DNA from: Haliotis rufescens
Taxonomy: Eukaryota
NCBI RefSeq assembly: GCF_023055435.1
Contig: NW_025963779.1
Location: forward strand, 22,444,001-22,508,000
Reading direction: 5' to 3'
Length of the DNA: 64,000 bases
The notes under the pieces are model-generated. The model saw nothing but the letters and a program-made list of their open reading frames with translations, had not been told where the DNA came from and ran no database searches. This document shows positions 1,086 through 58,080 of the stretch, piece by piece (the first letter of the stretch is position 1; each line of letters opens with the position of its first letter). A program made the position numbers and the translations under genes.

Positions 1086-1287
1086 GGAAACTACTTTTTC
1101 AGTGCTTTTAATTTCCAGAAAAACTTTACTCTTGAATTCCACACTTCAATATATCACAAAATTTGATGTCATTAGGCCTGACCAATTTAATTTCTTGAAT
1201 TTTTTTAATTAAATAGCTGAAGGTAAAACCTGGTGACCGTAGATACAGTTACATATCAATCTTCAGAGGTTCAGGTCAAAAATGAAT

Positions 1288-1566
1288 GGGGGTACGAGTG
1301 GCCCAGTCGTCTAAGGCGCCACGATTTTCTGTGCTGAGTTGTGTCCCTTGGGCACGCCAGAAACCTATAATTGTGGGTTCGAATCCTGGTTCGCCCCGAT
1401 TATGTTTCTAGGTTTGTCAGCACCATACGCGTGCTCGTGGGTTTCATTGAAGTTGTAAACGTCTGATACCTGCATCACTTTGGGATTTCCTCCCACATTA
1501 AGCTGATACGCCGTGGTATAACTGGAATACTGCTAAAAGCAGCGTTAAACCCTAATTCACTCACTC
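1288..1566 (+). mobile_element. tRNA-derived SINE family A
   Basis: A box (tggcccagtcgt), B box (ggttcgaatcc), (actc)n tail and TSD tcaaaaatgaa on both sides; several copies occur in the window. Confidence 0.9.
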
Positions 1567-2450: not shown

Positions 2451-3337
2451 AATATGGAAAGGGTTTTGTTGCTTTTGTTTATTATTGTGTATGGCTTTTC
2501 TTTGTGAAGATGTCAAGAGTCAGGAGGAAAAATAAACAATAAATGTTGTCAGGGTTGATTTGACGTTACTTTCCTAAATAATATAACTAAATATTAAACA
2601 CTGATTTGACATGACTTGAACTCTGCCAAAAGAGTCAATTTGACCAAGTACCTTGAAAAGTCATAATATAAATTTTATGACTTATCAGATATAGTCATGG
2701 TGAATGTAAAACTGTCCAGTAATCCAATTATCAAGTGGTCTTAGTGCACAAAGCAAGGGGGCTAAGTAACATGGAGCTTTAGAGGCAGAAGCCATAGAAA
2801 ACAGCCAGATCTGAATGGGTCTGACGGAAGCCTTTATAAATGGTTTAGGCAGTGGGTGTTATGAATGCCATGTTAATCTGAGTACCGACAATGTTATTGA
2901 CAACAGACACAGTTTTATAACATGGCTCCTTGGAGTGGCAATCTTGATGGGACATTCGTGGGATGAACTCGGATATCCAGATGAATATCTGTAGCTAAGG
3001 TAAGACAATAGGCAGAACGGGCAATGTGTTGGCTTGAACATCGGAGATTCAGAACATTTAGCCACAACTGACAGCAGAGGAAAAGGTATTCAACACCAGC
3101 CTGACATTACTAAGCAATATTTCCCATTTGTCAAACTGTACAGCGAATATATGTCCTTGGGTTTTTATCTGAGTTTAGAGTGAAAAGTTATTCTCTTCTT
3201 ACAGATTATGAACTTTTCTAATTACCTATGACTTAACACATGCATGTTCCCAAGAGGTGTGAACAAACTTACCTAAGTAGTATCCTAAGTGAGTATGGTG
3301 TTTATTAGTCATTGACTTACAGGAAGTTAATATATGT

Positions 3338-3493: not shown

Positions 3494-4592
3494 TATGTCA
3501 CACTGATTGGAGTGTATCTTGAACCAACTTTGTGGAATCACAGCCTCTTCAAATATACACAAATCATTCAGCAGGGCCTAGATGGTAATATTCAAAAGTA
3601 AAGTTTTAACAAGGAAATTTATTATTGATGGTGCTCTATGGATATTATGTCTAAATGATAATATACCCAACAGACAACAGCAACCTGCTACCATAGAGAC
3701 TAATATGCATACCCCACAAATGTTGAAACAGAATGGATGATGTCTTTAAACAATGAAGCAAAATGTAAAAATGCATGTCCATGACCCTGTAAATCTGTGC
3801 TAAGGCAAATATAGAGTTGCATGCTCCACAACACTAACGTTAAGTTGAACACTTTCAGTGATGAACAACACATTACATACACCAGTCTAGTCTGTCTCAC
3901 AGTCCCTGAACAATAGTATTGCCCCTTCCACCAAGTCCTTACTGTAATGCTATTGTAATAAAGCAAGTCTACATTTTCCCCAGGTTCAGGAATCTCCCAT
4001 TCCTTTTTAATTTAAATGTAATTGACTGTTTCTATCAAAACTATATATTTTCAGAGACTTAGCATAGTCTAACATCAGTCATGAAACAATATAACCAGTA
4101 TCAACAAAACAAAGACAGGCAATATATACAGTACATCTTATCACACAAAACAAGCAGATAAACACGATGCCCTACTGAGATTAGATTTAGAAACGACTAA
4201 ACTGCTTCAGCTTTCATCCTGTTAGAGTGGGTATGTAGCTAATCTGTCAACTAGAGAGTTCCCCTCTTATCTCCATGTTACCCACTATGTATGGGGTAGT
4301 CTCAGGTCGTTGTCATAGGCCAAGCCAATACACACAACTTTCTGCTCCATGTACACTCAAGATTATCTTGTCAAGAGTAAAGAACATGTTGAATGATTGA
4401 GCCTGGGACGGCTCAGCTATTTCTTTGGCAGCTCTCTATATACAAGGTAGGTGGTCTTTTGTTCATGATTTTTTAAAACAGAAATGAAACCATGCCTTTT
4501 GTTCAACATGTTAAATAAATATAAGTTTCTACAGATGTACATATATATATATCATTTGTATACAGAATTGTGTACATGATCTATCTGCTTGT

Positions 4593-4883
4593 GGGGGCAC
4601 GGGTGGCTCAGTTGTCTAACGCGCTGCGATTTGCTGTGCAGAGTTGCTGTGCAGAGTTGCGTCCCTTGACCACGCCAGAAACCTATGGTTGTGGGTTCGA
4701 ATCCCGGTTCACCCCGATTATGTTTCTAGGTTTGACAGCACCGTACCCGTGCTCGTGGGTTTCACTGAAGTGGTACAAGTCTGAGACCTGCATCACTTCG
4801 GGCTTTCCTCCCACATTAAGTTGACACGTCGTGATATAACTGTAATACTGTTAAAAGCGGCGTTAAACCCAACTCACTCACTC
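4593..4883 (+). mobile_element. SINE family A copy
   Basis: Collinear with 1288-1566; TSD-like tctatctg. Confidence 0.9.
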
Positions 4884-5016
4884 TATCTGTATGTGTGAAA
4901 AGTTGTCTAATCATGGTTGGCATAATCCACAACTGATTAATTGATGATGATTTCCTGAGATCAGGCATGTGTAAGTAAATTATTATTACACATTAAATTT
5001 CAAATCATGACGAAAA

Positions 5017-5089
5017 GGTGAGGTGAGGTGAGATGAAATTTGGTTTAACGTCGCGTCCAAGATTATTGCACTTATATAGCGACGTGCAT

Positions 5090-5156
<67 letters not shown>

Positions 5157-5405
5157 TGCTTGTACAAGTCAAGACTAATGCCGATTTATAGTGCTAGCCC
5201 ACTAGGATACCATGCCACAGTATAACATGAATACCCCACTCAGACACAGTATACTGACTCCGAGCTGACCAGTCCTTGTTTTAGACCCTTAATGCCAAGC
5301 GCCAGACAGTGTAACAACAAGTACCATCTTTTAGTATGAAGCGTCCGGGGATCAAACCCCAGACCTTCCGCTCTCCAGGCGGACACTCTACCACTAGGCT
5401 GCCGA
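5017..5405 (-). mobile_element. tRNA-derived SINE family D (resembles molluscan Meta/RUDI-type SINEs) with an internal (CA)n expansion
   Basis: The minus strand has an A/B-box head and a (tcacc)n tail. It is collinear with 23532-23886 and has (TG)n at about 5094-5155. The family name is from recall. Confidence 0.85.
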
Positions 5406-6421: not shown

Positions 6422-7642
6422 CCATATATCTTATCCTTACTTAGTACTCCAACTTCTAAATGCCTTTCAAAGAAATAAAAAAATCAATCATAATTATGAT
6501 GATGTGGACTACACATCTTATAGGCTGACCATGCATCACTGAACACAACAAACCACTTGTGGCATAGTAGACACAATTTATGGATAACAACTTTTTTATG
6601 TTCTGTGAGGGGGATGTTTCAGTAGAGATCCTTATACCGTTTCATAAAATTTCATAAACAGTTAAATGAAGATTACAAAAATTGCACAGCAGAATTTGAA
6701 TATAAAATTTCGAAATTGTTACCGCAGATAAAAATTAGTTTTGCCCTTGAGTACATGTAAAGATTCTATATTCTTTTGTTGCTGACTTCTTACATTATTG
6801 ATCATGAATGTTCCTTTGCATTAGATGTTATTTTCAACGTAGTCCTATTTTACCTGTCGATTGAAAAGTGCTAAACTGAAAGCACAACATGAGGTTTCAG
6901 TGATAAATCTTGTGCCATCAAATCTGCAAGTAACACTGCTCCGTCCTCAAGCACATTATGCTTAACTCCATTCTACTCATGACAAAATTAGATGTGAACT
7001 CTGTGGCCTTAGCAAAGCACCAACTTTCAAGCTCTCTGTAGTCCTTAACATTTAAGATATCTTCTAGTTCATTTCTATCTGGTGTTCTGGCCAAAATGTA
7101 TTGCCACACACGCTTGAAGATTGTAGTAGCCGCAGTCTGCATTTTGTAACTTGTTGTCAGTTGTACATATCATGACTTCAAAAGCCCTACAATGATTGCA
7201 AAAGAGAGTATGGTTTTATGCCTTTTGCAGCAATATTCCATTAATATCGCAGTGGGGATACCAGAATTGGGGATCCACATTACCCATGTTGGTCGTGAAA
7301 ACTGAGCCTTTGGCATAAGTAAAAAACACTTAAGCCACAAGGCTACCTGATTTGAGAAAGCTTCCAGTGATACAGTCATCAAATCAGTTGTTTCAACATG
7401 ATGTGCTTTAAACCTCCAAAAGATCAATCAGAATTGAGTATGCAGAACTGAGTATTTTCTATAATCATGGTAGAGTACTCAATGAACTAATTTATTCTCT
7501 ACTTGATTTTACAGGTTTCAACTGACATGACACATAAAGCCAAGTGAGGAACAGAGCATCAACTTAATATCACGAGAATGAAACTACAATAAATACATCT
7601 TTGCACATTCCATTTGATCTAATAAACTTAAAAGGAAAAACA

Positions 7643-8638
7643 ATGGCCAGTTCTCTGAAAGAAAATAATCCTGATATCATTGATGACGATATCCAACGAC
7701 GAGTCCAGGCATTGTTAAGCAGCAAACAATCACACGACAATGGCATCCAGGCATCATCCATATACGAGGAAGATATAGATGACCTTGAGGTGACCTTGAA
7801 GAAAGTTCTCCAAGCTGAGAGGAATCACTGGAAGGAGAAGCTCCAGAGTTCAATGCAGGAGATTGACAAGCAGCACAAAGTGATTCTGTCAGCACAGTCA
7901 GAATTACAAGCTCTTGCTGATGAGGTTGGGGTGGTACCTCACAATGATGTAGAGGATGACTATAATAGCTGGGGCAGTTCAAAGGATCTTGTAAAATGTC
8001 TCCAAGACTATATTCACAAACTCCAAGAATCCAAGACGGAGACACCAAGAGATCCACAGCCATCTGTGGTTGATCTAAAACTTAAAAGCACCATAAGCTC
8101 TCTGAAGAAGGAAAAGACTGAACATTTAGCCACCATTACATCTCAGAGCAACCAAATCCGTTGGCTTCAGACTGAGCTGAATTCATACAAACATAAAGTT
8201 CACAAATACAGGAAAATTGTGAAAAATTATAATGAACAGACTTCCTCACATTTTCATCTTGATGATATAGAAACTTCCAAGAAATTTCCTAATCAGCAGA
8301 TTGAGAAACAAGGAGGGGAGAGGGTATATGTTGAAGGGGAACAACTGACATATCCTAATCCGAATGATGAGATTGCATCATGGACACAAAGGTCCAATCA
8401 GAAAGGAAAGGATGCACTTCGAGGGAGTCCTCGAGCTGGTATTAGTCAGTGTCTGAGATGTCAGAAACTGTTTAAGCCGAATGAGAACACCAAGTTGGCA
8501 TGTCGCTTTCACAAGAAGGGTCGTGAGATCAAGGAACAGTACGATGACTCTGGTAGACTCTGCAGGGTTGTATATAAGTGGGCATGTTGTAAGAAGGTCC
8601 TGGACTCACCAGGATGTTCTTATGGATTCCATGTCTAG
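7643..8638 (+). CDS. Coiled-coil protein (331 aa) with C-terminal CHORD/BTK-like Cys/His zinc finger; single coding exon ('gene 0')
   Basis: Long open frame with an ATG in good context (acaATGg) at 7643 and a likely acceptor ttgattttacAG at 7514. The middle is heptad-rich. The C-terminus CLRCQKLF..N...CRFH..G...WACC....PGC..G.H matches the recalled CHORD-like ligand spacing. Confidence 0.85.
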   Translation: MASSLKENNPDIIDDDIQRRVQALLSSKQSHDNGIQASSIYEEDIDDLEVTLKKVLQAERNHWKEKLQSSMQEIDKQHKVILSAQSELQALADEVGVVPHNDVEDDYNSWGSSKDLVKCLQDYIHKLQESKTETPRDPQPSVVDLKLKSTISSLKKEKTEHLATITSQSNQIRWLQTELNSYKHKVHKYRKIVKNYNEQTSSHFHLDDIETSKKFPNQQIEKQGGERVYVEGEQLTYPNPNDEIASWTQRSNQKGKDALRGSPRAGISQCLRCQKLFKPNENTKLACRFHKKGREIKEQYDDSGRLCRVVYKWACCKKVLDSPGCSYGFHV

Positions 8639-11600
8639 AGAAAGATCTGCTGTACCTTTACCGGATGAGGATGAGGATGAGGATAATGCCTTATTACCGT
8701 GAGAATGTTCTTGATATAAAGAATCTCACAACTTAATTTGGGCTGTAGAATTATGTTGATGGGCTCATAGTGATCTAGTGATTTAAATGACCCACCTCAG
8801 CTTCTCAAGAGAACACAGGACAACAAACAGGATGATAAATATGAGCTAATTACTATGCATTCCATGTCTAAGATTTCCGGTGGCACAACTCTAAAGCGTT
8901 TGGTTCTTCAGGTTGTTTTATTTTGGATGTCTTTTATGCTCATGAAATTCAGTTTTCAACACACAAGAAAATAACATGATGCCCAATCAACACTGATAAT
9001 CTGCTGTATAAATACTGTGTGGTCACTGGCATGACATTCACTTGTATGTGATAGCCTCTCAATCAAATCCAAAGGTACCCATGAGTTTAAACATGGAGGC
9101 ATAATATAACCACATGGAAGCGATCATAAAGTATATATGGTATGCATTCTGGAATAAAAAGGGGATTTCAAGAATTTCTTTTGTGGAGTGATGAGCCATA
9201 AAAGGTACACTTTGAAAACCTTCCACTGTTCAATAAACATTTCTGGATGCCACAGGCATTGCAGCAACCAAATTCTGCTTTAAGGAGATATACCAGTGAT
9301 TAATGTGTTTTCAGTTTTCACTGTTAAGAAACAAAGATTGCAAATGTTGTATTGATGTAAAGATAATAAAAATGAAATTTCAATATGCGTCTTCATGTAC
9401 CTATGTCAGTGTATGCTGGTCATATACCTGACATTCTGTGGAAAGTTTTTTAGGAATTCCATATATCTTAAAATGACAGGAAAAAAAGTGACACTGCATA
9501 TCACATGAAAAGTGTCAAGTAGTCACCACTTTAATGTACTTGAAGTTCATTGATCATGTTAGATCTAATCTTTACAATGATAATGGAGAACCAATCTGTA
9601 ACATTCCTTATGTCAAATATCAAAGCTTAAGTACATTAATCGGCGATCTTTGTCACCCTTCACTAAGCCGTGCGTGGACCCGTCTGGTCAAAACTTAACT
9701 GACAGTGCATATGGTATGCACGATACAAGCGGTACACGGTACTATCACACCTATTGACAGTTAACCAGTATAGGCTTCACCTCAATCAGCAATGTTCACG
9801 CAGGTGTATGGACAGTAATCTTTTCACCTAAACGATGATCTACAAACATATGTTCCATGATTCAATGATACATCAGGGATGACCACGACTGCTTAAATTG
9901 TAATAGTAAGCCACTTGATAGCCATTCAAAGCGAGGCGATGCGATCAGCTGATCGTTCATTCCAGGTCCCTGACTTTGTTGACATTTTGCAATCGGTACA
10001 TAAAATGATGCCCTTGATGTTTGAATATCACGCTTTTAAAAATTAAGTCCATTTTTTTTCATTGTATATGTATGCATATCTATGTTGTATAACCAATGAG
10101 GCAATATATATGCATTTCAGTACAGCGGGTAGGCGATGTGGTACACAAAATGTAAAGGTCTTATGTAATGTAAAGTTTTTCAGTAGATTTTGTGAATTTT
10201 GACAGCAACAGATGTATTTATCAGGTATACAACTGAGAGAGGAGAGTGAGGAGAATATTTCAACAAATTGTGAAAAAAAGGCATAGACATTTTATGTCAT
10301 CAACTAAATATCATAATACAATGTTCAAAAAACCGAATTGGAAATCACTTAAATCCAAGGTGTACACATTTTTTACATAGATGTATTGTGGCTGTTGCCC
10401 AGGACTACCATGATTACATACATTTCAATTATGATAAATAAAAGATAGATATAATTATGGCATTTTTTGAAATTCTAAATAATTTTTTTTGAGACACAGA
10501 GGAGCCTATATATTAGTTTAAATACATATTCAAGGATGCAGATACCAACTACAACTTTTCATATTGTAAATGGAAAACAACATATTCATACTAATTTTCA
10601 ATCACTATAATGCTGATTGTATTAACATTACACAGTGTCTACACCATCAGCTGATTGTAACAGCTCTTTCTAAATTAGACCTTGCTTTGTATGTATTCCT
10701 TATTCCAAACTGATGTTTCAAATTCCCACACAAGCAAATAAAGAATGCCATTCTTTCTTCTCTTTTCATCATTAGATATCTGCATAGCACAATATAATAA
10801 TTTTATTTGATATCTGTTAGGGCTGGGACGTGTACCTCAGGTACTCGGGCCGGGTGGGTATTGAGTAGGACCCGGGTACCCAGAGGACTACCCGGACCCT
10901 TGGTTAGTTATTGATATATTGTTTCATGACAAAAATTTACTATAACTACATGGTTACACAAATCACTAATGTTCACATTTCTTTGTGACTATGATCGCAT
11001 TCCTTCTGACTCATATATGTTTGAATAAAGATAAAACTTCAGTCAAATTCAGTGTATATACATGACCAGGACATTTTATATGTGTATCTAAATACATTTT
11101 GCTCAGGCTATTGTCAAACTATTCTCAATCGGACATTTTGTACCTATATTTTGAAACCAACAGCGGGTAATAGAGGGTGTGAGTACCCGGGTAGTAAATT
11201 TGGACTCCAAGCCCAAATATCTTTGTATACTTGTGCATGTGTATTAGTATTAGATTACACATGCGTGACTTTTTATCCGTCATTACATATAAGAATAATC
11301 TGTTATATGTAAAAACAAATAACATAAATAAATGCATTTAGATATATCTACACAGACTGGTTGTGGAGTTAAATTTGCATTTATGCCATGATCAAAATAT
11401 TTGATTATGAACAAATCAAAATCATATTTGCTGCATCTAATAAATAGACAATACTACAGATGTCTTAAGTACTGCTGAATGTAAATCGTGATACATAGCG
11501 ATAGCATGGTAAATGCATGGGTTGTAAGGGATATAACTTGTAAACATATGCTACCAAAACAAGAAGATACAGCTATCATTTACAACAATGTATATATCAT

Positions 11601-22105: not shown

Positions 22106-23531
22106 CAGTTCTATCTTGGACAGGAAACAAGAGGTTGATAGCATGAGCAATGGCTCACACTATCAGAGCATAATGAAACACAATCACAAGTACACATTTG
22201 TATCAGCTCTAGGTATATGTACTGGAGACATAATGTATTCCAGACTCCCCAATTAATCTGAGCCACAGTCCTATTTCACTGTAAAAAAAAAAAATATGAC
22301 AGATATTGAGTTATGGTTTGTGTTTTCCACTCTGACACCTTGCTTATTCATTAACATTCTTCTAGTGTCTGCACACCCTAGTACAGACTATAACATGGTA
22401 GAGGTATATGACTCCATTAATCAGGCCAAAATCTGTCATACATGACTTAATCTTAAACAGGCATAACAAGGCCTCATTCAAGCCACTACACTAACTACAT
22501 GTCTACCTGGATCATTTGCTGGTTACCCTCTTAGACAATTGTCTGCTACACAAGTCAAAGTCAAGCTTATGTGGTTGTTCAAGGCTGGATATTGAATGCA
22601 GTCCCTCGTTCTCAATCAGACAACATGGTCATGCGAGTTGGGAACATATGATTGGTAATCTGTTGTTACCAATGGTGTTACTTAGCATATTTCGTCAGCT
22701 ATGAGATTACTCGATGTATACAGTGTGGGAAGATACAATACAGATATCAAAACATTGACCATGTCAACTGGGGGGCTTCTTGATGAGCATGGAGAATGAC
22801 AACTAAATTCTTTGTATTCGAAAAAGTCTGTGATATTTCCTTGAAAGGTGGAGACATCAGTAACGGATAATTAATCTGCAACGATACAGATGGATACAGT
22901 GTTCTAGACACCAAGGTAATGTTGCTGTACGAGATGGAGTTTATTGTCATACTTCTAATCTGTTCAGGAAGAATTTTGATTGAAATTACATACATGTTTG
23001 GAAACATTTTTGACAGTTTTGTTAATATTCTCATAACATATCAAAACACTTTACATATTAATAAATGGATTAATTTATAAATGTATTTGTATGATAATAC
23101 CTCAAAATATTGTGTTGGGATTTTGTTAAAACATCAACAGTTGATCATTGTTTTGAAAAAGTAATTGATCAATCAATGATAAATCATGAATGAGGATAGT
23201 GAAATCATCAATTTTGAGAATTCTTTCTTTCATGGAATGACAAGAAATAAATTTTCAAACTTTTACATGATATTTACTATACTCTTTAAAAACAAACACC
23301 TTTAGCAGCAAACAACAACAGCCCTTTTACTAAATATTACTTTTTAAATAAACTGATATTACTAAAATATTATTCATCATCGATTCCATGAACAATTAAT
23401 TGGTTGGAAACTGAATCCAATCAATCCTCGATTAAAGTTATTAATTGAACAACACTGCAACAAAACCCTCTAAAAAATCATTGGAAATATCTGCTGAAAG
23501 CAGAGTCTATTGTGTGAATCTGTTTGTAAAA

Positions 23532-23886
23532 GGTGAGGTGAAATGGGGTTTAACGTCGCGTCCAAGATTATTGCACTTATATGGCGACATGCATGCACGT
23601 GTGTGTGTGTTTGTGTGGCTGCTTGTACTAGTCCGGACTTATGCCGATTAATAGTGCTAGCACACTGAGATACCATGCTGCAGTTTAACATGAATACCCC
23701 ACTCAGACACAGTATACTGACTCCGACCGACCGACCAGTCCTTGTTTTAGCCCCTTAATGCCGTGCGCCAGACAGGGTAACAACAAGTACGATCTTTTAA
23801 CGTCTTTTGGTATGACGCGGCCGGGGATCGAACCCCTGACCTTCCGCTCTCCGGGCGGACGCTCTACCGCTAGACCACGGAGGTGG
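23532..23886 (-). mobile_element. SINE family D copy
   Basis: tRNA-like head on the minus strand (gtggtctagcggtagag...ggttcgatccc); TSD tgtttgtaaaa. Confidence 0.88.
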
Positions 23887-23948
23887 TCTGTGTTTGTAAA
23901 AACAATCTAACTAAACTCTGTGCCCTTGCTTCTTCTCCAGCCAGCACA

Positions 23949-26381
23949 ATGGATGAGTGTCAGCGGTCAGTCTTACAGCGCCACTTCAAGCAGCTGGCCA
24001 GTGACCTCATGTTGTCGGAGGACCTGCTGGGGGACTTGTATCAGCAGCACATCTTTGACAGGAACATGATCGACATCATCAGGGTGAGAATATTGTGTCA
24101 CATATCTTATTTCCAACATGCAAGCTTGTATTTTTCAGAATGTAAGCCATAAATCAGAGGTGAACCTAAGTTAAACATAACAAATCTGCCAAGACATAAC
24201 ACTGAAGAAGCAGAAGTGACTGAGAGAATATTGTTTTGCACAGTCAACAATGCATAATTATATAACAGTTGCCTAACACACTGGACCTGAAAAACATGTG
24301 GTTAACACAAATACTGATCTATGCCAACAGTATATTATGTATTACACTTGCATCCAGAGCAGATAATTTCATAAGCATTATCATGAATTGATGACATTAT
24401 ACTAATCCGTAGCATGACTTGACGGTCATAATATCCATGTTCATCAGCCATCAATCTAAGCATGATATGGTGATCAAAGTTGTCCCAACTTAAGGTTCCA
24501 TGCGAGAAAAAAGTAACTAAGAATGAATATTGATTCAATCTTTGTATTATTTAAGGCATAGTCATGGACTATGAGATGTGATTGAGCTATTATCTGTGTT
24601 TCTCTATAGAGCCAAGCTACAGACAGCGACAGGGTGTACAAGATGCTAGAAATGCTTCCTAAACGTGGACCATCTGCTTTTGACACTTTCATCAACATCA
24701 TCCAGGACAGCTACCCATGGCTAGCCGCCATGCTGGATTCTAGCTACTTGGCCGCAAAGAGCAAACACCAGCCGAGTTCAGGTGGACAGCATTGCAAGCT
24801 GGAGAGGCTGTTCACCGTCACAGGTAAGTCAGGGAACAAGGGAAACAACTCTTTACAGCATAGCTTAAACAGTTTGTAGCCATTGAGACTACTCTTTACA
24901 AAATAAGGTTGGATCACATTTCAAGAATCAGCACAGCACAAAATGTTTTAATTCTAAACTCCTTACGATTATTTTAAGATCAGTCCTTAGTTGGTTTCAT
25001 GGATTTGTTCTTCGCCTCTTTAGCTAACTATTAATAATAGCTAATTATGGTATTTATGAACATGTGCAAACATTATCAGCGCATCACTTTCTTCACTATC
25101 CTAGAACTACCTATATCACTATGGAGAATATCAAAGAAGAACTATCAATATTCATGGGAATGGGGGAACAGGTGATCACTTATAGATAAAGTGAATTGCC
25201 AGGTGAAGGCAAATATTCCTTATAAATAATGAATGTGATCAAGAAATACTTCTGTCACTACTTTTCAGTAAAGCTAATTGCATTTGTATAAATAGCAAAC
25301 ATTGTCTTGATAAAAAATCCCAGACCAGTGTGTGTTAATTATTTGCAGATTGAAAAAGAATAATACCCATATGACAATAAATGTATTCTTCTTTATTTCA
25401 GACGCACCTCAACATCAAGATAAACCAGACTGTGACATAAGGAAAAGAGTTGGGACATTTGTCCACAAGCAGTTCGGTCAGAGTAAGAGGGTCTCCCAAA
25501 ATGATAAAAAGGCAGTGGAAAGGTTTCTCAATGAACAGCTGAATGATGAAAGGATTCGACTTCAGTCTCTGGCAGAGAAAGCAGAATCTCTCCCAGACAC
25601 AGAAACCGAATCTGTGGTCTCTCAGGTTAGTGATGTTCAGCAAAAACTGTTTGAAATCCATGTCATTCTAGAGCCATACCTCCAGGGCAAGGCACTTAAA
25701 GAATTCAACAACCTCCTTCCAGAAGACATGACCTTTGAAATCATCCAAAAAGAAATCAGATCGGTTTTGGAAAATCTGAATAGAGCTGAGAAAGAACTCA
25801 CTGAATGTTCTAAGCTGCCTGGGCTTCATGGGGATGAGGAGGACAAATTGCCATTGTGCAGTTACATAGAGAAGTTGATAGAAAAAGTTGAGGATCAGCA
25901 AGAGAAGCTTCAAAGTCAGGAAACTAGACTGACAGAACTGCAAGGAGAACTGAATGAATACTCCATCCATATCGACAAACTAGAATCTGAAAGAGAAACT
26001 TCTAGGAGTAAGATACAACTTCTATCCAAGGAAGTGTCTCAGGTCAGACATGACAAATTCAAGTTGGAGGAGAGAAACGCCCAACTTGAAAAGATTCATC
26101 AACAACATCTTGAAAAGGAAAAGACTCTAGAGAATCTGAAATCAGTTGTGAGAGAACTGCAGGCATCAAAGACTTGCAATAGCAGTGGTAACATAGATGA
26201 CAGTCAGAATGTCCGATCACGGGAGGTAAATGGACTTCGGAGCAGTATAATAAGACGTACCTTCAGGACAACGGGGGAAAGGTTTGGAAGGACAACACCA
26301 AAACCCATCCATAATTACCAGCTGGCCAGAACTAGATACACGGTCAGGAATACAACCAAGAAGAAGGCAAATTTACCATGA
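23949..26381 (+). CDS. CARD-coiled-coil protein, paralogue A (442 aa); exons 23949-24083, 24610-24823, 25402-26381
   Basis: Canonical GT-AG introns in phase 0 and phase 1 splice into one open frame. The CARD reads MDECQRSVLQRHFKQLASDL...IDIIR|SQATDSDRVYKMLEMLPKRGPSAFDTFINIIQDSYPWL (caspase-2/RAIDD-type LPKRGP motif). It is followed by a long coiled coil and an R/T-rich tail. Confidence 0.9.
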
Positions 26382-34111: not shown

Positions 34112-36540
34112 ATGGAGAAAAACCACAAGTCTACCCTGCAGTTCTTCCATGTCAAATTGATGCTTGATTTAAGGGTGAATGAAATGTTTCTCGCACCATT
34201 CCTACAGAAGGGAGTTCTGCATGAGGGTGACATCGAGGAGATTCTGGTAAGTAACTAAACACATACCACAACGCTTTGTAGTCCATATAAAGCTGAGTTT
34301 CATTATTTCTAAATCTAGTTATTGTGTCATATTGTTCAAGATATACTTGTCCTATGTAGTCAAGCTTGACTGCAACTCGTTCGTTTATTAATATTTACAT
34401 GACAAAGCTGTGGTTATCCCACCAGTTCAAACTCAATCCCTTCATGGAATATATTTAAACAATGGTGGTAAAGAACATGATTGAACATATTTGTAGTCTG
34501 ACCCAATAGGTTAATCAGGTTTAATCAAGTATCTTAAATCAAGCCCTGCAATAGATATGTCATTTACAGAGTGGGCCAACTTCAAATGCCAAGACTGCCC
34601 AATTCCTCTCTATTCTGCCAAAATGTGGACCACAAGCATATGATGTCTGCATCCTACAACTGAAAGATGTATATCCTTGGATTGCTGAAGAAATGGAGGC
34701 GTCTTTCAACAAACTGGCACCAGTTATTGACTACAACAATCCCGGTATGCTATGAGAGGAAACAATTATTGTGAAATGAGTTGCAGTAAATATATATCTG
34801 AAAACATCACAATATGGATCCAACCACTGCCACATATTTGACGAAAGTATCTTTCTTATTTGAGTTATGGCTCTTATAGATCTAAATTACACCTAAAATT
34901 ACACCATGGTCTATGAAATGAGGTTGGTTGGTTGGTTGGTTGGTTGGTTAACGCTGCACTCAGCAATATTCCAGCTATATGACGGCGGTCTGTAAGTAAT
35001 CGAGTCTGGACCAGACAATCCAATGATTGATATCATGAGCATCAATCCACGCAATTGGGAGCGATGACATGCATCAACCAAGTCAGATACCCTTTCTAGT
35101 CAGCATTTTCAGGGATCCATTCATATAATTTTCATCACTGTTTTGCCTTTTGCACCCAATGGAATCAATTTTGGTGGATACTCAAGACTCAGTTAATATT
35201 TTGAATTCAAAATTTATTTCATCAATAACATGTTGACAAAAAGCTAACCATGCTATATATAAATTAAATGACAAAATATTTCTTTTTAAACATTGCAGTG
35301 TTTGGATTCCTTGACAACAAAGATTGTAAGAATGACCCACTCTCAATATCTGACACCTCAAACACAATTATCTCCAATGGGGAGAGAAATACCAAGACAA
35401 ATTGTTCCTTCCATGAGGAGAAGAGCAGCATGGTCAGAGAACTGAAACTGATTGTAGCTAGAGTTTATAAAAGGCTTGCAGTGTATTTAGACAGCAGAGG
35501 TGTGAAGGAATATGATCTGGCTTTGTCCGAAGTCCCAGAGGACATTCTGGAGGTAGTTGTTAGTGAGATCATAGAAATAATATCAAATCAAGACACAACT
35601 CTCTTGGCTATCTCAAGCCTATTTACCCAAGAGGAAAAAGAAGCCAACAGTTTGTATGAAATCATACAGGGTATGAAATCTAATATTGAAAGCATGGAGA
35701 GGACACTTGAAGGCATGATTGAGATGGAAAGGAAACTAAAACGGCTTGAAGAAGACCAACAAGAAAAAAATAAATACATAAAGTTGCTGGAAAACTGCAC
35801 TGAAAATTAAGCTGGATGAGATTGAAAAGCAGAGAAAACAAGAATCCCTCATGGGGAGGAGATTCGACAATGAGGGACACAGTCAACATCTACATGTACA
35901 AGGGCATGGCTGTAATGATGATACACCCAAGTTCATGAAGGGGAGTGAAACTGCTAGGACAAATGAGTCTGATGCACATGGACAAACTCACCATTTCCAC
36001 ACTGATCCATCTACTGGTAGATGTGAGGTGCATATTACACTGACCAATATCCACAAAACTACTGGAAAAATAAAAAAGAGCCCTAGACCAGTCGACAGAC
36101 TCAGTCAAAGACCATCAGGTCAAAATACATCCTGATGCCATTTTCTGACTCCAAGCAATCATCAAGAGAAGCTTTCGATAGGTAACAGGTCAACAGCAAT
36201 GCCGTTGATGACTGCAGCCCTGGTTAGACCACAAAGTGCAAATATGTCTCTGACCAGTGTAAGGAGACCAGGAACTACAATCAGCAGAGAGGTAACTGGA
36301 GATTCACTGAGGGGCGTCTACAGGGACTCCAGATCTGTGTCTGCTAGCCAACAGTCCAGCTCATCCTTGAGATCCAAGGACATCAGTTCAAGCATTGATG
36401 GATTCCAGCAGAGACCCTCTTGCTATCAGAAACATCACAAAACAAAATCCACAAGAATTTATGTTTTACAATGTCGGACTTCTCCAAAGACCTCATCTAA
36501 GATATTAACCAAACGTAAATCAATGCAATGGCGCTATTGA
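34112..36540 (+). pseudogene. CARD-coiled-coil paralogue B, truncated or pseudogenised; exons 34112-34246, 34570-34744, 35299-(35810 stop; ancestral end 36540)
   Basis: The CARD exons are intact (MEKNHKSTLQFFHVKLMLDL...IEEIL|SGPTSNAKTAQFLSILPKCGPQAY...YPWI) with canonical splice sites. Exon 3 aligns by eye to paralogue C but has a frameshift near 35791-35794 and an in-frame TGA at 36133-36135. As written it encodes 273 aa. Confidence 0.8.
34922..35087 (-). mobile_element. SINE-like family C copy (5'-truncated) in intron 2 of paralogue B
   Basis: (ggtt)n followed by the family C core. Confidence 0.85.
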
Positions 36541-41327: not shown

Positions 41328-43068
41328 ATGAATGCCAAAGAACGGTTGACTCTGCAGAAGTTCCACAATGTGTTGGTTGAAGGTATCATGCTGAGTGAGA
41401 CTTTCCTTGGAGAGTTCATAGCACAAGGGATTCTAGATCTCGACCTTAAGGAGGAGATCACAGTAAGTCTTTCAGCTCCACTGTCTGGCAGTGAATAGTG
41501 CAATATGCAACTCTCAAATTGTTCAGACTTGTTGATTTGAAACATCATCCATGAACAAACAACTTTAAGGTTCTTTTTTAACATCAAATTGTACCATTTC
41601 TTGTGACATTAACATTCTAAACATGCAATGTGAAACAATCGATAAAGCCAAACCAATTTCTTGTTTTACAGAATATCTTGCCAGAAAGTTTGCTAAAGTC
41701 AAACTGAAGATACAAAGTTGTGTTTGATTTGAAATATACATTTTTATACATTGATTATTAGTTTTCTTTAAATTATAAATGAAACCATATATATGGGGAA
41801 AATGAAATGTATATCCTTTACATGGACTCTTCTAAATTGATCATCATTTCAGCCTGGAAAATCTTTTAAACAGGAAACAAAATTTATCTGGCCTAAAATT
41901 AAAATTATTTGGTTATTCTCAATATCAAATGACTATATAATTTTTAATTTCTGAACAATAGTTTTCAACAACAAAAAAGCCTCTCCCACTCCATTCCTCT
42001 TTAACATTGAATGGTCAGTTCCGAATGTAATTGTTTTCAACTACTTACAAAGACGATCGATATATTTTAGTTTTGCAGATATTTATCCAGCATGCCAAGC
42101 CAGGTTAGTGAAGTTGTATGCATAGAGATTACTGCAACTCAGACATGGGTAATAAAAATAGACATATCACATTCAGATGTCATAGATTTATTGAAGGGAT
42201 AATCTCACAGATGACATTTAAAGTAAATTACAGATATAGATATATCCTAGTGACTGTGGTATGCACCTTTACCACGTTACACACACATCTCAATGGACAT
42301 GAAGGAAACTGTTTTTCATCTTGGTATGTAGTTTCAGGGGATCCTGGAGTCATTGATTCTTTCCAGTATTCAGTATAATCAGTAGTTGATTATAAAGATG
42401 CCCCAAAATTAGGGTATCATTTGGTTTTTTATTCTTAATTTTCTATTACTGTACAATATAGTTGTATGGTATAGTGAAAATTGGTTTGGTCAAGTATATT
42501 TAGTACCATATTTGGTTTTCACACAAACATGTTTTCACTGAATTTTTATTGTAAATCAAACCTACATGCAGTCCATGACTCACCAGTCCAAAGCTGAGTC
42601 CTTCTGTCTAGGCTAATAATAGTCATTACATTCAGACTAAAATCTTATTAAAAAAGAAGAAGCCGAAAGACATGTTCATGCCAGTAGACACTAGTCGTGG
42701 ATCAGCAATACCGGTAGACAGGTAGACAGGTAGACATTGGTCCTTGATGCCTATACAATGTACCAATAGTCTTGGCTCAGTATCTGATAAATAAACATTA
42801 TTTAACAAACACCATAAGTTAATAAAAAAATAATTTACATTCCAAAGTTAGGATTTTTACTAAGGAGTGATTTAATATTAAATATTTTTAAGAATTATTT
42901 CTCACAGTTTAGTTTAGGAATGTGTCATGATTACTAATTACTACTCTGCATGAACATAATTACACTGAAATGTGAAAATTTATGTTTCAATTTCAGTTGG
43001 ATTTAATGGATTTAAACCAGTGACTATTTTACATTTTTTTAAATATTAAACTGAATATTAGACAATAA

Positions 43069-43140
<72 letters not shown>

Positions 43141-43208
43141 GCATTGCATTATATGAAAATAATTACACTGAAATGTGAAAATTTATGTTTCAATTTCAGT
43201 TGGATTTA

Positions 43209-43267
<59 letters not shown>

Positions 43268-46200
43268 GCATTGCATTATATGAAAATAACACTACTTTGC
43301 CACACAGCAGTCATGTGTATTGCCAATACCCAGGTCTGGTAGACACTAACATTTAATATTTTTTAACAAAACATTCATATGACTTGAAATTCTGTGGTCA
43401 AGATTTTCAACTAGGAATAAATATCAAAAGTGGGACAACAAACTTGCATCGAATATGCATCATAATCATAAAAAACATAGTTTGTAACATTTTCTGATCA
43501 TTTTCAAGATCTGCATTTTTAGTTTTAGGTTTAAAGAAGCATGGGGTGATGGGACAATCTGTATATATGTATATGTTCAGTTATTGACTGACTAATTGGT
43601 ATTCATGGAAAATAAATTTTAAATATAGGCATTTATTTTGCTCATTTCTTATATACATCAAACAATAATGTTAATGAGTCATTGACACTGGACATGCATA
43701 TTTATTGGTCTCACCAATAATGAGTGTGTGAGTATGTTTTTATGCCGCTTATAGCAATATATCAGCAATATGAGGACAGGGGACACCAGATATGGGCTTC
43801 AAACATTGTATCCATGTGGGGAATGAAACCCAGGCCTCTGATGTGACAAGAAAACGCTTTTACCACTTGGCTACCCTACCTCCCCCTCACCAGTAATGAA
43901 ATACCTAACAAATGAACAGACAGTTTAAATTGAAAACACATTCTTGGGACAGGCATTGATTTACATTTCTTATAAAGCATTTGTTTACCATTATATGCTT
44001 CGTTCATTAAAACTCCACAGGACTGGTGAAATTGTTTCGTAGTTCAGTACTTTTTTTTTGATTCCCCAAGTATTCATAAACATGTAATTCACAGTCATGG
44101 ATATATTTGGTACTTAAGTTTATATCCACTTCTTGGTATTGTCAAACATGAACATGTATCACAATGACTAAACTCAGTAGACAGATTGTGACCAGTTTCA
44201 TGACATGTGCTGTATGACCTGTGAAGATCCGGGTTAGAATAGGTCTTCAGCAACCCATGCTTGTCATAAGAGGCGACTATGCTTGTCGTAAGAGGTGCCT
44301 AACAGGATCGGGTGGTCAGGCTTGCTGACTTGGTTAATGCATCCCAATTGCCTAGATCAATGATATCAATCACTGGATTGTCTGGTACAGACTTGATTAT
44401 TTACAGATAGCTGGAATATTGCTAAGTGCCATGTTAAACAACAAACAAACAAATAAACAAACATATACTGTACCATGGAAACTGGTAGTGTTACTTTCTG
44501 TCCATTTCAGATAAAAACAGACAGTTACAGTGATATGGATTGAACTTGTGATTAGGTTTAACAAATAAAGCGACAAAACCATTTCCATATTCATAAGAAA
44601 TCTCTGCCAAAAATAGTCGATTGTACAATTCCAACTATATCATGAGCACGTGTTTATGAATCACTATCAAATAAACAAACCCGAGGCACAAGGCCTGAAT
44701 CTAGTAAAATTATTTTTGTTCTTAAGTTGTCTAAGGTAATAATTGTCCACTGGACTGCACTGAAAATTATGCTTAGAGCCATATTTGGGCAAGTAGACTC
44801 AAAAGGTTTTCACCCAGATTGTATCTGTGTTTGCTTTAACAATGTACTACTCCATGTTGTTTCTAAAGACCTTGACCCTAGTTTACAATATCAACTTCTG
44901 TTCATAGAGACTGACCATATGAACTGACACTGAAATATTCCATGGAGACTTGATGACAATATTTTTCAGTGTGAGGTGACCGTAGAAGCCAAGAATGCCA
45001 AGTTTCTGTCGGTCTTGCCCCGCCGTGGTCCCAATGCCTTCCCCACCCTACTGCGAGTGCTGGAGAGACAGGCACCCTGGATCAAAGATGAGTTGGAGAC
45101 ATTCTACAACAAGCAGAGACGTATGTTATCTCCCTTGTTCAACATATTGCTGTATATATTCCCATGTCTTCCACTGTAGCCAGAAGTCCAGGGCTTACTA
45201 GTGAATACTGCATTACAATGCACATCCGTCAACAAATAAACAACCCTACGTGACTCTGGACTACACCAGGGGTTGATACTATGACTAATGTTCCACTGAC
45301 ATATAATAAACAATAGCCAGGTCACACATTGTTACTCCTTAATTTCATTTTATAAAGAAAAACCTTTCTGGTGGAATCTTCTGAACATGATTTTTGCATG
45401 TGCTCTCAGTGATTGAAATGAAGGAGGTCATGGAGTCCTTCATGTTCAGTCACCCAATAAGGACCTTTCAGACACATCTATTTTGTCTATAACATGTGGA
45501 TTATGGCATGATGGATAATTTGTGTTTACTTGGTATATTCTGCTTATATTAGCATTAATATCTTCCAGGTATCGTGTACACTAGGGACGGTGATTTCGTC
45601 CCTGATGATAATACAGATATACAGCCCAGTTATGATCCTCCAAACAGAAGCCAGAGCAGTACTGTACTGGAAAAGGCAGTGCAGACGCTTGAAGATTTCC
45701 ATAACGAAGAAGATGTCAGTGTCATAAAAAGTTTGCGATCAACAATCGAGCATATCTATCTGAGACTGGTGACCTACCTCCATAGTCAAGGAATAAAGGA
45801 ATTTAACATTGTTGAATTAAACGTAACCTCTGAGCTACTAGACAGAGTAGCGAGGGAAATGTTGAATGTTGTGTCAAACAAGGACAACATACTTTCAAAT
45901 ATTTCCAGTCAATTTAGCGAAACTGAGAAGCAAATGGCAGAAAATGATGTGTGTAGCATGGTCAAGAGAGTCCTCTCAGATAAAGCATCACTGAAACATT
46001 ATCTTGACAATAAGGACTTGGAGGTGATGGAGCTAGAGAAAGAATCAAATAAAAGAATTGAAACCCTGGAGGACAAGCTCAGGCAGCTTGAGGAGAAGGT
46101 CGAGGAGAAGCAGCTTCGTGTACTAGCACTGGAGGAACAGTTGCAGGGTAAAGAGAGTGAGATCCAGAAGTTGGAAGTTGCTGACAAACTGCGGCTACAG

Positions 46201-47073
46201 GAGCCACTGTTGAAGAGAATACACAGCTTGATAGATGAGGTGTCCACCGCAAAGAGTCAGAAGGAGAAACAGATGTATCAGACAGAGCAGGAGTATCAGG
46301 ATCTGCAGAAGGATACTATTGGACTTGAGAATCTGTTGAATCAGCTGAAGGGTGTTCATCATTACCATGAACAACAGCATAGGAGTCATGAGCGGTATCG
46401 ATCTGTATCCCAGAGCATCAACAATGAGAATATTGGTAGAGATGGAAAGGTGTATCAAGGCATGTTTTCCTCTGAACAAACTTTGACTGTTGATAGTCAT
46501 TTAGGGTTTGACATGTCAACCAATAAGAATGAGAAAACTTACCAAACAAAACCCAGTAGAAGTCCCAGGAGAAGATTAAAGAGAAGTCCTAGGCCTGGCA
46601 ACATGCTAGTTAACAGGTCAAATTCAGACACTGTGCCTACTTCGCCAAAGCAGAAAACACCTCGATACCAGCAACCAATATTTAGTAGGCAAGTTTCAGA
46701 ACTTCACCTTGATAACCGATCAACATCAAGACAAAGTACAGATTTCCTTAGGTCAGTGTCAAGACAAGGAACAGACTTGTCCAGATCTGTATCCAGACAG
46801 GCTACTAATTTCTCTTTGAAAAGCAGCACTATGTCTATGCCATACACAAGCCGCCAGGGCACAGAACAGTCTCTCATGAATGGACACCAGTCCCGGACAT
46901 CAGTCAGATCTGAAGACATTGACCCTCTTGCATCTGCTAGACAAACACCTCGTGATAGTCCTCAACTACAATTAATGACCAGATCTGAAAGTGTTAGGTC
47001 AAATCCAAGGCAAAATCGTGCCACATATCAGACAAGAAGGGAAAGAACATGTCGTCTACTGTACATGAGGTGA
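41328..47073 (+). CDS. CARD-coiled-coil protein, paralogue C (596 aa); exons 41328-41462, 44970-45120, 45569-47073
   Basis: GT-AG introns in phase 0 and phase 1 give one open frame: MNAKERLTLQKFHNVLVEGI...KEEIT|CEVTVEAKNAKFLSVLPRRGPNAFPTLLRVLERQAPWI. A helical domain, coiled coil and Ser/Arg-rich tail follow. Confidence 0.9.
43074..43263. repeat. (TA)n and (TCTA)n microsatellites within a local duplication
   Basis: Seen directly; ataattacactgaaatgtgaaaatttatgtttcaatttcagttggattta and tgaaagcattgcattatatgaaaataa each occur twice nearby. Confidence 0.9.
43722..43885 (-). mobile_element. SINE family B copy, diverged
   Basis: Collinear with family B; TSD ctcacca(a/g)taatga. Confidence 0.85.
44217..44461 (+). 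mobile_element. SINE-like family C, near full-length copy
   Basis: gacctgtgaagatccgggttagaa...gtcgtaagagg...ctggaatattgct...(aaac)n. Confidence 0.85.
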
Positions 47074-51590: not shown

Positions 51591-53284
51591 AGCCTCCATT
51601 TACACATGAACTGTCTACAATTTGAGATACGTGTAATCAGATCCATTGGATATATACAGTTTATCTTCTATTTCTATGAAATATAAAGGCAGGACTATGG
51701 TCATCTTCTTGATTCTGATGTATTATATTCCATATTGTCCCATTTTGACATCTACACTCAAGATAACTCTGATGAAAATGTAGGTGCTGAACGACTTGGT
51801 CTAATCAAGGACAGCTAACTTCGGAAGTTTATTACAGCTCTCTTCTCGTGAATTAAAGGACATCTATCATGACTGTGTGAGACAAGTCATGACTGTGTGA
51901 GACAAGCAACTTACCGGTGGAGCAGGATACACTCTTCTTTTCATGAACACCTCTGTCATCACTATTTGATAGTGATTTATAAACACATACTTATGACATA
52001 GTCAGAATCATAAAGAGGACTCTGCTTTTTGCAGAGATTTCCTTTGATTATGATGTGAAAGAATAAAGCAATGTGTGGACTGTTTAAGATACCACATTAG
52101 TTGCACCATCCATTTTAGGAGTGAGTGAGTTAATGTTGTTCAACTGTACAATTGGCAATATCCAAGCTACTTACACAAACCACTGACTGAACGCATGAGC
52201 CAAGGTTCATACTATTGGGGCAAGAGGACCTGTAATCACCCACCATGCCTGACCAACCGATCCCCTTTAGATGTCTCTTACAAGCAAAGATTAGAATCAT
52301 TTGAAATTTCTTATTTTATAACAAGCTGTGCAGGAATGTTTCTTGTTATGATGTTTGATAATGCTGGTTGAACTAGTCTGTAAGTGACACGCTAGATAGG
52401 ATGATATTTACAATAAGAGTAAGCTGGTCCAGGTGAGCAGGGAGAGAGAATGCTTATATTTTCTTGCACAGACCAGGTATATGGTCCTACCATGTGAGCA
52501 GTGATTTTACATCCACTTCAGTGATGTTCACAAAGCAAGCATGTCCTCAAACACAAGTGACATACCATCAGCTGCTGCCAATACAAGAGGAAATACTTCT
52601 CACAGACAGCAATGTTACAAGATGTCATCACATTGATGTCAAAACAAAACCAAGGAAACAACCAAAGTTCTCACTTTACACATCCTAGTCCCAAGCATTA
52701 AAAGTACAAAACCTCTATGATGTTGATGGGAAGTTGCTGAATGAGACATAGCAATTATCTCTCACAAATGCTACAAGACCAGATTGCCTTTTTTTCACTA
52801 TTATGAAGATGAATTTAAAGACAGATAAAACTTGTAACCTTCATGTGCATTGCTTATCCCATATAAATTGTTGTTTGGGTACATGTAAAATCACAAGATG
52901 TTCAGAATACAGTCGTTTAATTCTGTCCTAAAACTGCACTTATTCACACTCCCATCTAATGAAAACACTCTAAAATTTAGAGGGTAACATGATTGTTGTC
53001 ATAGCACAAAAAATCAAACAATAATTATCATTGTTAATAATTCAAAGAATATTACCTCTATTACATCAGTGCTATGAATACTGTATTTCAGCTGTCATAA
53101 CACTATAAAAAATTTAAGATTTTCAACAAATGTCCTCTTCTCTGTCAACTACTTATACTCAACACTATTAGCATCTCCCTCCCTAAGACTGTTGCGTATG
53201 CATGAGGCGGGAAAACATTAGTTCCTTCCAATATCAGCAACTATATGATATAATGTAGAGGGGAATGTCTGAATAACTCTCTAT

Positions 53285-56200: not shown

Positions 56201-58080
56201 GTGTGTTTGGTTGATCTGTAGATTATTTCCTTGATCTGTAGTGTGTTTGGTTGATCCATAGATTATAAGGTTGATCTTTAGTTATTTTGGTTGATCTGTA
56301 AATTATTTGCTTGGTCTGTTGTGTGTTTGGTTCATCTGTAGATTATTTGATTGATCTGTAGCCAGTTTGGTTGGATCTGTAGATTATTTAGTTCATCTAT
56401 AGATTATTTGGTTGATTTGTAGTGTGTTTGGTTGATCTGTAGTGTGTTTGATTGGATCTGTAGATTTTTTATTGATCTGTAGATTATTTGGTTGATCTGT
56501 TCTGTGTTTGGTTGGATCTGTAGATTATTTCGTTGATCTGTAGTGTGTTTGGTTCATCTGTAACGTGTTTGATGAATCTGTAACGTGTTTGACTGATCTG
56601 TAGATTATTTGGTTGATCTGTAGTGAGTTTGGTTGGATCTGTAGATTATTTGGTTGAATTCTAGTCTGTTTGGTTGGATATGTAGATTATTTGGTTGATC
56701 TGTAGTGTGTTTGGTTGATCTGTAGATTATTTGGTTGATCTGTAGTGTGTTTGGTTGATCTGTAGATTATTTGGTTGGATCTGTAGATTATTTGGTTGAT
56801 CTGTAATGTGTTTGGTTGATCTGTAAATTATTTGGTTGATCTGTTGTGTGTTTGGTTGATCTGTAGTGTGTTTGGTTGATCTGTAGATTATTTGTTTGAT
56901 GTGTAGTGTGTTTAGTTGATCTGTAGATTATTTGGTTGATGTGTAGTGTGTTTGGTTGGATCTATAGATTATTTGGATGATCTGTAATGTATTTGGTTGA
57001 TCTGTAGATTATTTGGTTAATCTGTAGTGGGTTTGGTTGATCTGTATTGTGTTTGGTTGGATCTGTAGATTATTTGGTTGATCTGTAATGTGTTTGGTTG
57101 ATCTGTAGATTATTTGCTTGATCTGTAGATTATATGGATGATCTGTAGTGTGTTTGGTTGATCTGTAGATTATTTGGTTGATCTGTAGTGTTTGGTTGAT
57201 CTGTAGATTCTTTGGTTGATCTGTAATGTGTTTGGTTGGATCTGTAGATTATTTGGTTGATCTGTAGTGTGTTTGGTTGGATCTGTAGATTATTTGGTTG
57301 ATCTGTAGTGTGTTTGGTTGATCTGTAGATTATTTGGTTGATCTGTTGTGTGTTTGGTTGATCTGTAGATTATTTGGTTGATCTGTAGTGTGTTTGGTTG
57401 GATATGTAGATTATTTGGTTGATCTGTAGTGTGTTTGGTTGATCTGTAGATTATTTGGTTGATCTGTAGATTATTTGGTTGATCTGTTGTGTGTTTGATT
57501 GATCTGTAGATTATTTGGTTGATCTGTAGTGTGTTTGGTTGATCTATAGATTATTTGGTTGATCTGTAGTGTGTTTGGTTGATCTGTTGATTATTTGGTT
57601 GATCTGTAGTGTGTTTGGTTGATCTGTAGATTATTTGGTTGATCTGTAGTGTGTTTGGTTGATCTGTAGTGTGTTTGGTTGATCTGTAGATTATTTGGTT
57701 GATCTGTAGTGCGTTTGGTTGATCTGTAGATTATATGGATGATCTGTAGGGTGTTTGGTTGATCTGTAGATTATTTGCTTGATCTGTAGTGTGTTTGGTT
57801 GATCTGTAGATTATTTGCTTGATCTGAAGTGTGTTTGGTTGATCAGTTGTGTGTTTGGTTGATCTGTAGTGTGTTCGGTTGATCTGTAGTGTGTTTGGTT
57901 GTATCTATAGATTATTTGGTTGATCTGTATTGTGTTTGGTTGGATCTGTAGATTATTTGGTTGATCTGTAGTGTGTTTGGTTGATCTGTCGATTATTTGG
58001 TTGATCTGTAGTGTGTTTGGTTGTTCTGTAGATTATTTGGTTGATCTGTAATGTGTTTGGTTGATATGTTTTAGTTTTTG
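53285..58080. repeat. 4.8-kb satellite of 20-bp monomers forming a 40-bp dimer
   Basis: Alternating tggttgatctgtagtgtgtt and tggttgatctgtagattatt units; more degenerate at the left end. Confidence 0.97.

Follow-up and report, generated by a model that had tools for sequence, protein, structure and literature searches.

Introduction

CHORD domains (PF04968) are found in RAR1, CHORDC1/Morgana and melusin. The account of RAR1 in PMC2935968 gives the ligands of its CHORD as C159, C164, C178, H181, C196, C197, C213 and H218, and its contacts with HSP90 as A185, F187, H188, D189, W194, F204, F207 and M208. The F187-H188-D189 loop touches HSP90 and its nucleotide, and F204, F207 and M208 are carried by a short helix (PMC2935968). 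The REXO1/Rex3 exonucleases are described as having a single CHORD outside the HSP90 co-chaperone architecture (PMC12129344), and a layout of CARD plus coiled coil is described for the scaffolds CARD9, CARD10, CARD11 and CARD14 (PMC5978004).

We analyzed a window of 64,000 nucleotides from Haliotis rufescens (the whole stretch of DNA under study), in which a coiled-coil gene ending in a finger, Z2, lies beside CARD genes; along the array, Z1 comes first, followed by Z2, the CARD genes A to D and another CARD-like gene, E. The Z2 finger is similar to CHORDs in having eight ligands in like order and a profile match to the structure 2yrt, but it differs from those of PF04968 in being single and C-terminal, in its C-x2-C opening, in a hairpin that is 10 aa longer, and in having neither F-H-D nor the DF..F helix. 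In contrast to the CHORD co-chaperones, Z2 contains no CS domain and its finger is attached to a coiled coil. By domain description it is like REXO1/Rex3 in its single putative CHORD-fold domain, without the KIX or DEDDh domains given for those enzymes. Gene A has the CARD and coiled-coil layout reported for the CARD9-type scaffolds; however, its CARD is of the RAIDD type, and Z2 itself has no CARD.

The BTK motif (PF00779) has four ligands. It is similar to the H...CC..x8-9..C half of the finger, and 5 of the 15 members of our finger alignment match it weakly, with one distant finger-family match passing the cut-off of the BTK profile; Z2, in contrast, has eight ligands and no PH domain. CARD-only or truncated decoys, e.g., ICEBERG, also exist. 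Z2 is like them as a partial relative beside signaling genes, but the CARD is missing rather than the effector, and Z2 stands outside the CARD clade.

Gene structure and transcripts of Z2

The Z2 reading frame (7643..8638, + strand, 331 aa) is a single coding exon, based on its translation and on orthologue conservation, and carries DDDIQRRVQALLSSKQ, LQDYIHKLQE and the C-terminal finger. A polypyrimidine tract with an AG acceptor lies at 7495..7514 (+); the AG ends at 7514, in phase 1 and 128 nt 5' of the ATG, and three in-frame stops (TGA, TAA, TAA) lie between acceptor and ATG. The reading frame, the motifs, the finger pattern, the acceptor phase and the three stops had all been listed in a first-pass annotation of this DNA, and each was confirmed in the sequence. 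The acceptor is used: in all four putative RNA runs, which come from three studies, contigs open at 7513 and carry additional letters. In the three runs for which these letters were seen, they match exons ending at GT donors, at 2999 in X1 and X6 and at 4446 in X8. Loose contig ends of X1 and X6 thus mark the 3' end of a non-coding 5' exon a (2968..2999, +, donor GTAAGA at 3000), and the one from X8, a run of a related species, marks the 3' end of an alternative non-coding 5' exon b (4416..4446, +, donor GTAGGT at 4447). The genomic run X15 reads through the intron unspliced. A likely polyadenylation signal, AATAAA, is located at 9365..9370 (+), with RNA contigs stopping at 9286-9371.

Upstream ATGs in both examined leaders all run into a stop before the main ATG, and a CARD-profile search of 47 kb upstream of Z2 found no matching frame. 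Together with the RNA contigs, this gives Z2 a single coding exon preceded by non-coding 5' exons. The first-pass annotation had raised the splicing of a CARD exon into Z2; in the putative RNA contigs, only non-coding 5' exons join. We rejected Z2 as an isoform of a CARD protein, based on the three stops after the acceptor and on the non-coding 5' exons in all three runs with letters seen. Short gene-call fragments of some Z2 orthologues (P0206, P0208, P0176) end just past the N-terminal module, which suggests introns at that point; the single coding exon may therefore not be universal among orthologues.

The Z2 protein and its finger

We recovered 25 relatives of Z2 over 79-100% of its length, with 32-97% identity, the named ones being all gastropods and bivalves. 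The Z2 gene is real, spliced and conserved across these two groups. The protein opens with a predicted helical module, DxDI..V....Q.ER.W (aa 13-62; 7679..7828, +), common to A, D and Z1 and delimited by hhalign, finger-protein intermediates and model helices; in the predicted structure this region holds helices 15-31 and 40-95. It is followed by a helical and coiled-coil region (aa 63-200; 7829..8242, +; model helices 40-95, 113-132 and 140-200), in which the middle motif ER..C...L is absent. This motif is present in none of the 26 Z2 proteins, in contrast to 28 of 47 other finger proteins. The orthologue alignment then places the linker motifs FHL and R.Y.EG of the Z2 family at 8252..8341 (+), with F204, H205, L206, Y229 and E231 invariant in 25 sequences, and a putative CHORD-fold finger with a long basic hairpin at 8450..8635 (+), whose ligands C270, C273, C287, H290, C315, C316, C325 and H330 are invariant. 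Invariant residues across Z2 orthologues fall in the coil, linker and finger. The helices of the structure prediction are confident, and the finger is of low confidence except for its hairpin (pLDDT mostly under 60). Foldseek with the full model returned nothing at E 0.001, and VIA-align returned generic helices only, none at Z 8 or more. As leads only, the ESM Atlas placed the N-terminal part near bacterial helical clusters and coiled-coil proteins at under 0.9. A literature search of article full texts, which included gene identifiers, gave no published account of this protein family.

The finger reads C-x2-C-x13-C-x2-H-x22-W-x-CC-x8-C-x4-H. Its eight ligands are invariant in the 25 orthologues and in 84/84 fingers of canonical spacing; the spacing 2/13/2/22/8/4 is found in 84 of 99 family fingers, and 90 of the 99 end within 3 aa of the C-terminus. 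The ligand order C,C,C,H,(W-x)C,C,C,H maps onto that of RAR1. A finger profile of 15 sequences, including distant protist fingers, matches human CHORDC1 (2yrt) at E 9.5e-5 and RAR1 (2xcm) at E 0.47, whereas the single Z2 sequence found none of the solved CHORDs. Against PF04968, Z2 scored 12.6 bits, under the cut-off of 24.6. CHORD was nevertheless the commonest Pfam match in the finger alignment (7/15 members), with 0/15 over the cut-off. In the ESM Atlas, the nearest clusters to the finger, at 0.91, contain BTK in 13% of their members and CHORD in 19%. The first-pass annotation had called the finger CHORD/BTK-like; its CHORD half agrees with the ligands and with the 2yrt match, but the BTK half does not hold, with no PF00779 match at E up to 5. 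A search of PDB sequences with the finger alone returned two Rhs matches, which we regard as chance. Conserved hairpin residues are R272, N282, K292, E298, Y300, G304, L306 and V309, and the median net charge of the hairpin is +6.

The surface by which RAR1 contacts HSP90 is a different matter. We found F/Y-H-D/E in 0 of the 99 family fingers, and of the RAR1 contact residues only the Trp has a counterpart in Z2. The gap from CC to the next C is 8-9 residues in 99/99 fingers versus 15 in RAR1, so that the F204/F207 helix is deleted. No CS domain was matched in the Z2 protein, which contains a single finger and no tandem CHORDs. A canonical two-CHORD gene on another contig of the same genome (C445), however, keeps FHD/FHE and DF..FL. 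The link to HSP90 and NLR regulation, which had been drawn from the resemblance to CHORD, is not supported, because the RAR1 contact motif is missing while the canonical gene of this genome keeps it. Judged by its ligands and contact positions, the finger represents a distinct class, with a putative CHORD fold, that dropped the HSP90 surface.

The finger family and Z1

With a profile, 114 matches were obtained among 1.84 billion representatives, mostly longer proteins composed of module, coil and terminal finger. Ten were looked up, and the two named to species are annelids, Capitella and Paralvinella. None of 87 matches scanned was positive for a CARD, the other 27 being already known proteins, short fragments or plain coiled coils. 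Searching the own genome for finger genes revealed only Z1 and Z2, plus one weak match (E 2.3). Z1 lies 12 kb upstream of Z2 on the same (+) strand and has three coding exons (L003:2000-5249; G000:C1 about 22,436,000-22,439,249, upstream of the window). In a close relative it encodes 668 aa (P0154) with an acidic N-terminus, the module, the middle motif, the coil and a terminal finger that is 55% identical to that of Z2. Of the two genes, Z1 stands nearer to the finger family at large.

Eight small proteins, apparently protist, algal or fungal, have a like finger (P0213, P0214, P0218, P0223, P0224, P0229, P0230 and P0232), some by itself and others fused to an F-box or UBA domain. They point to a broader class of CHORD/BTK-like fingers that lacks annotation. 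As neither module nor finger matches Pfam at the cut-off, our analysis defines an unannotated spiralian protein family. The CHORD domain itself is already known; new, as far as can be judged from the alignments, is a putative CHORD-fold finger class without the HSP90 surface in an undescribed family.

Relationship of Z2 to the CARD genes

CARD gene A (23949..26381, +; exons 23949-24083, 24610-24823 and 25402-26381) encodes a RAIDD-like CARD, the module, a coiled coil and an S/R tail, with no finger. Its CARD is matched by Pfam; among solved structures RAIDD is closest (E 2.3e-16), caspase-9 is also matched, and no match to CARD9 or CARD11 was obtained at E 0.001. Gene B (window 34112-36540) has two CARD exons and a third exon whose frame stops at 35810; coding-like sequence runs on in two other frames (35782-36135 and 36136-36540). 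Gene B may be frameshifted, mis-assembled or decaying. Gene C (window 41328-47073) comprises a pair of CARD exons plus an exon of 500 codons that encodes a coil and an S/R tail, without a module match. In gene D (window 61700-64000 and L007:1030-2775), the exon that follows the CARD encodes the module (DDDIKKKV...EEIQRER), and the module tree places D with A. Gene E consists of a CARD half-exon (L008:8824-9003; Pfam E 4e-6) and, after it, a coiled-coil exon of 485 codons (L009:2636-4093); it is likely a fifth CARD gene and lies at the distal end of the array. An own-genome search with the A module recovered A alone; D was missed, so this is a lower bound.

Pairwise comparison of Z2 with A by BLASTP was not significant (E 0.65). 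In Smith-Waterman comparisons, shuffles reached the observed score in 8/1000 cases over the whole length, 32/1000 for the N-terminal part and 93/1000 for the decapeptide region. Between family profiles, hhalign gave prob 6.6 with 5 A sequences, and prob 91.7 and E 7.6e-7 with 22; the module alone gave E 1.7e-4 (reversed E 0.17; 0/40 column shuffles). Comparison of the finger with A gave nothing, nor did that of Z2 with the CARD. Finger-protein intermediates decided the question: their modules match the A module at prob 97.8 and E 7.5e-13, and an alignment of A 124-400 with 32 finger proteins other than Z2 spans 157 collinear columns at prob 98.1 and E 8.3e-14, the reversed control giving E 0.13. 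When 3347 frames of 134 kb were searched with a profile built from finger proteins only, it picked A exon 3 (iE 3e-5) and D (iE 1.9e-5). Of the other CARD genes, module profiles found B weakly (iE 0.028) and C and E not at all. Reversed sequences and 10 unrelated coiled-coil decoys stayed under 1 bit against the module profile. An A-only profile of the middle motif failed to beat its reversed control (12.7 vs 9.1 bits), and the profile signal over Z2 residues 63-200 may be partly generic coiled coil.

On these profile alignments, Z2 and A are homologous over the module plus a collinear helical region, because finger-protein intermediates align both. The resemblance of the Z2 N-terminus to A exon 3 seen in the first-pass annotation, weak in pairwise comparison, is thus significant at the level of families. 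The likeness of LQDYIHKLQE to LCSYIEKLIE, also proposed there, is at chance level. We discarded the decapeptide as a mark of homology; only an L-x3-I/V-x2-L heptad is kept in either family, and the profile alignment is one heptad off. A exon 3 likewise opens in phase 1, a coincidence with the Z2 acceptor of one-in-three chance, and the distance from acceptor to motif is about 165 nt in Z2 versus about 30 nt in A. Against the A-module profile Z2 scores -1.7 bits, and 10/84 finger proteins reach 10 or more. Because of this low score and the missing middle motif, Z2 is, in comparative terms, a shortened and divergent member of the finger family.

Proposed origin and linkage of the CARD branch

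An unrooted tree of 89 modules over 56 columns, with rough support values from an unsettled bootstrap, contained four supported clades: Z2 (99/96), Z1-like (97/85), one including Paralvinella (99/88) and CARD A+D (98/93). The finger design is likely the older one and the CARD genes a derived branch, because three of the four clades are finger-ended without CARD, and CARD forms are from molluscs only among the named hits when the best 7994 word-sharing candidates were scored. If the root lay on the CARD branch, the two designs would be equally old. The description of Z2 as a CARD-less member thus stands as to kinship with A; loss of a CARD does not, and the direction was probably the reverse. 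That Z2 was once a CARD gene is improbable, because it forms a separate clade, belongs to the finger group least like A, has Z1 upstream and has annelid relatives free of CARD.

We propose that a finger-family gene of this tandem array took up a cassette of two exons that encoded a RAIDD-like CARD and ended in a phase-1 donor. The cassette would have joined the module exon through its phase-1 acceptor, and subsequent loss of the finger would have produced A, after which D, and probably B and C, would have arisen. The linkage of Z2 and A would then be mainly a trace of tandem birth. Such a history would provide a traceable origin for the mollusc-wide set of CARD-coiled-coil genes of RAIDD-like type, in which the parental kind of gene still lies beside its derivatives, and a testable case of a death-domain scaffold born by exon capture. 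It would also bear on the caspase-2 pathways of bivalves, which PMC7836458 presents as unresolved.

Linkage was assessed in 12 named species with both Z2 and A orthologues, using near-adjacent gene identifiers on equal-sized contigs as a proxy. By this proxy Z2 and A are near-adjacent in 9 of the 12, namely the gastropods H. rubra, H. asinina, H. cracherodii and Patella caerulea (locus tags 022056/022057) and the bivalves Saccostrea echinata (LOC...389/388), Mya arenaria, Mercenaria, Mytilus edulis and M. trossulus, and the possibility that orthologues are never linked to the CARD cluster, raised in the first-pass annotation, does not hold. In Argopecten and Pinctada, the two are on equal-sized contigs but have distant identifiers, and in M. 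galloprovincialis the records are on different short scaffolds. Taking kinship and identifier order together, Z2 is a distant relative and long-standing neighbor of the adjoining CARD genes.

Possible functions of Z2

The explanation toward which we lean is that Z2 is a self-associating coiled-coil adaptor, with paired two-zinc fingers for a partner other than HSP90, in a family older than the CARD branch. Z2 would dimerize through module and coil, and the dimer would hold out its paired fingers to that partner. Based on the RAR1 ligand map, each finger would bind two zinc ions, and the conserved basic hairpin would be the binding surface. Rather unlikely, in our judgment, is co-assembly of Z2 or Z1 with the CARD proteins through module and coil, either as a decoy that dilutes CARD density or as a donor of fingers, part of which the first-pass annotation had suggested. 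It would suit the module and collinear helices common to the Z2 family and A, the near-adjacent identifiers in gastropods and bivalves alike, and the RAIDD-like CARD of A, RAIDD being an oligomerizing adaptor. However, Z2 itself fits the A-module profile poorly, only a minority of finger proteins do better, and the middle motif is absent from all Z2 proteins; tandem birth suffices to explain the linkage, and both named annelid members are without CARD. A complex prediction of A 118-385 with Z2 8-206 scored 0.00, made without alignments and with an uncertain fold of the partner, and weighs neither way. A broader version, to which we give somewhat less credence, is that molluscs acquired a CARD-coiled-coil signaling scaffold of their own, separate in origin from CARD9/CARMA, when a RAIDD-like CARD was grafted onto a finger-ended coiled-coil family of spiralians, and that the finger genes have stayed adjacent since the gastropod/bivalve split by co-assembly, supplying the lost CHORD-fold sensor in trans.

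We also consider it improbable that Z2 serves as a structural component of cilia, centrosome or sperm, with the finger as its docking module and with no part in death or immune signaling. What speaks for this coiled-coil role is the architecture, i.e., the long coils, the serine-rich linkers in paralogues and the several paralogues in ciliated spiralians, but the fold searches yielded only generic helices. Binding of HSP90 in the manner of RAR1 and CHORDC1, which would tie the cluster to NLR chaperoning, is very improbable: the CHORD-type ligands, the 2yrt and weak 2xcm matches and the prevalence of CHORD among Pfam matches would agree with it, but apart from the Trp the contacts of RAR1 are gone, the hairpin is 10 residues longer, and the genome has a separate canonical two-CHORD gene. 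The least credible reading takes Z2 and A for unrelated neighbors with a convergent helical pattern. The BLASTP result and the first hhalign comparison were in line with it; the intermediates and the reversed and decoy controls largely refute it.

Other features of the locus

An unrelated gene on the opposite strand flanks the array with a 560-codon exon (L006:5017-6699, -) that has no Pfam match. Copies of high-copy short interspersed repeats, recognized by very high contig depth, are present at window 1250-1560, 4590-4885, 4990-5400 and 23530-23890. At window 52000-58000 and 62300-62890, introns of the C-D region contain long strand-biased tandem repeats (GC skew 0.6, AT skew -0.5) and an array of the 27-nt type.
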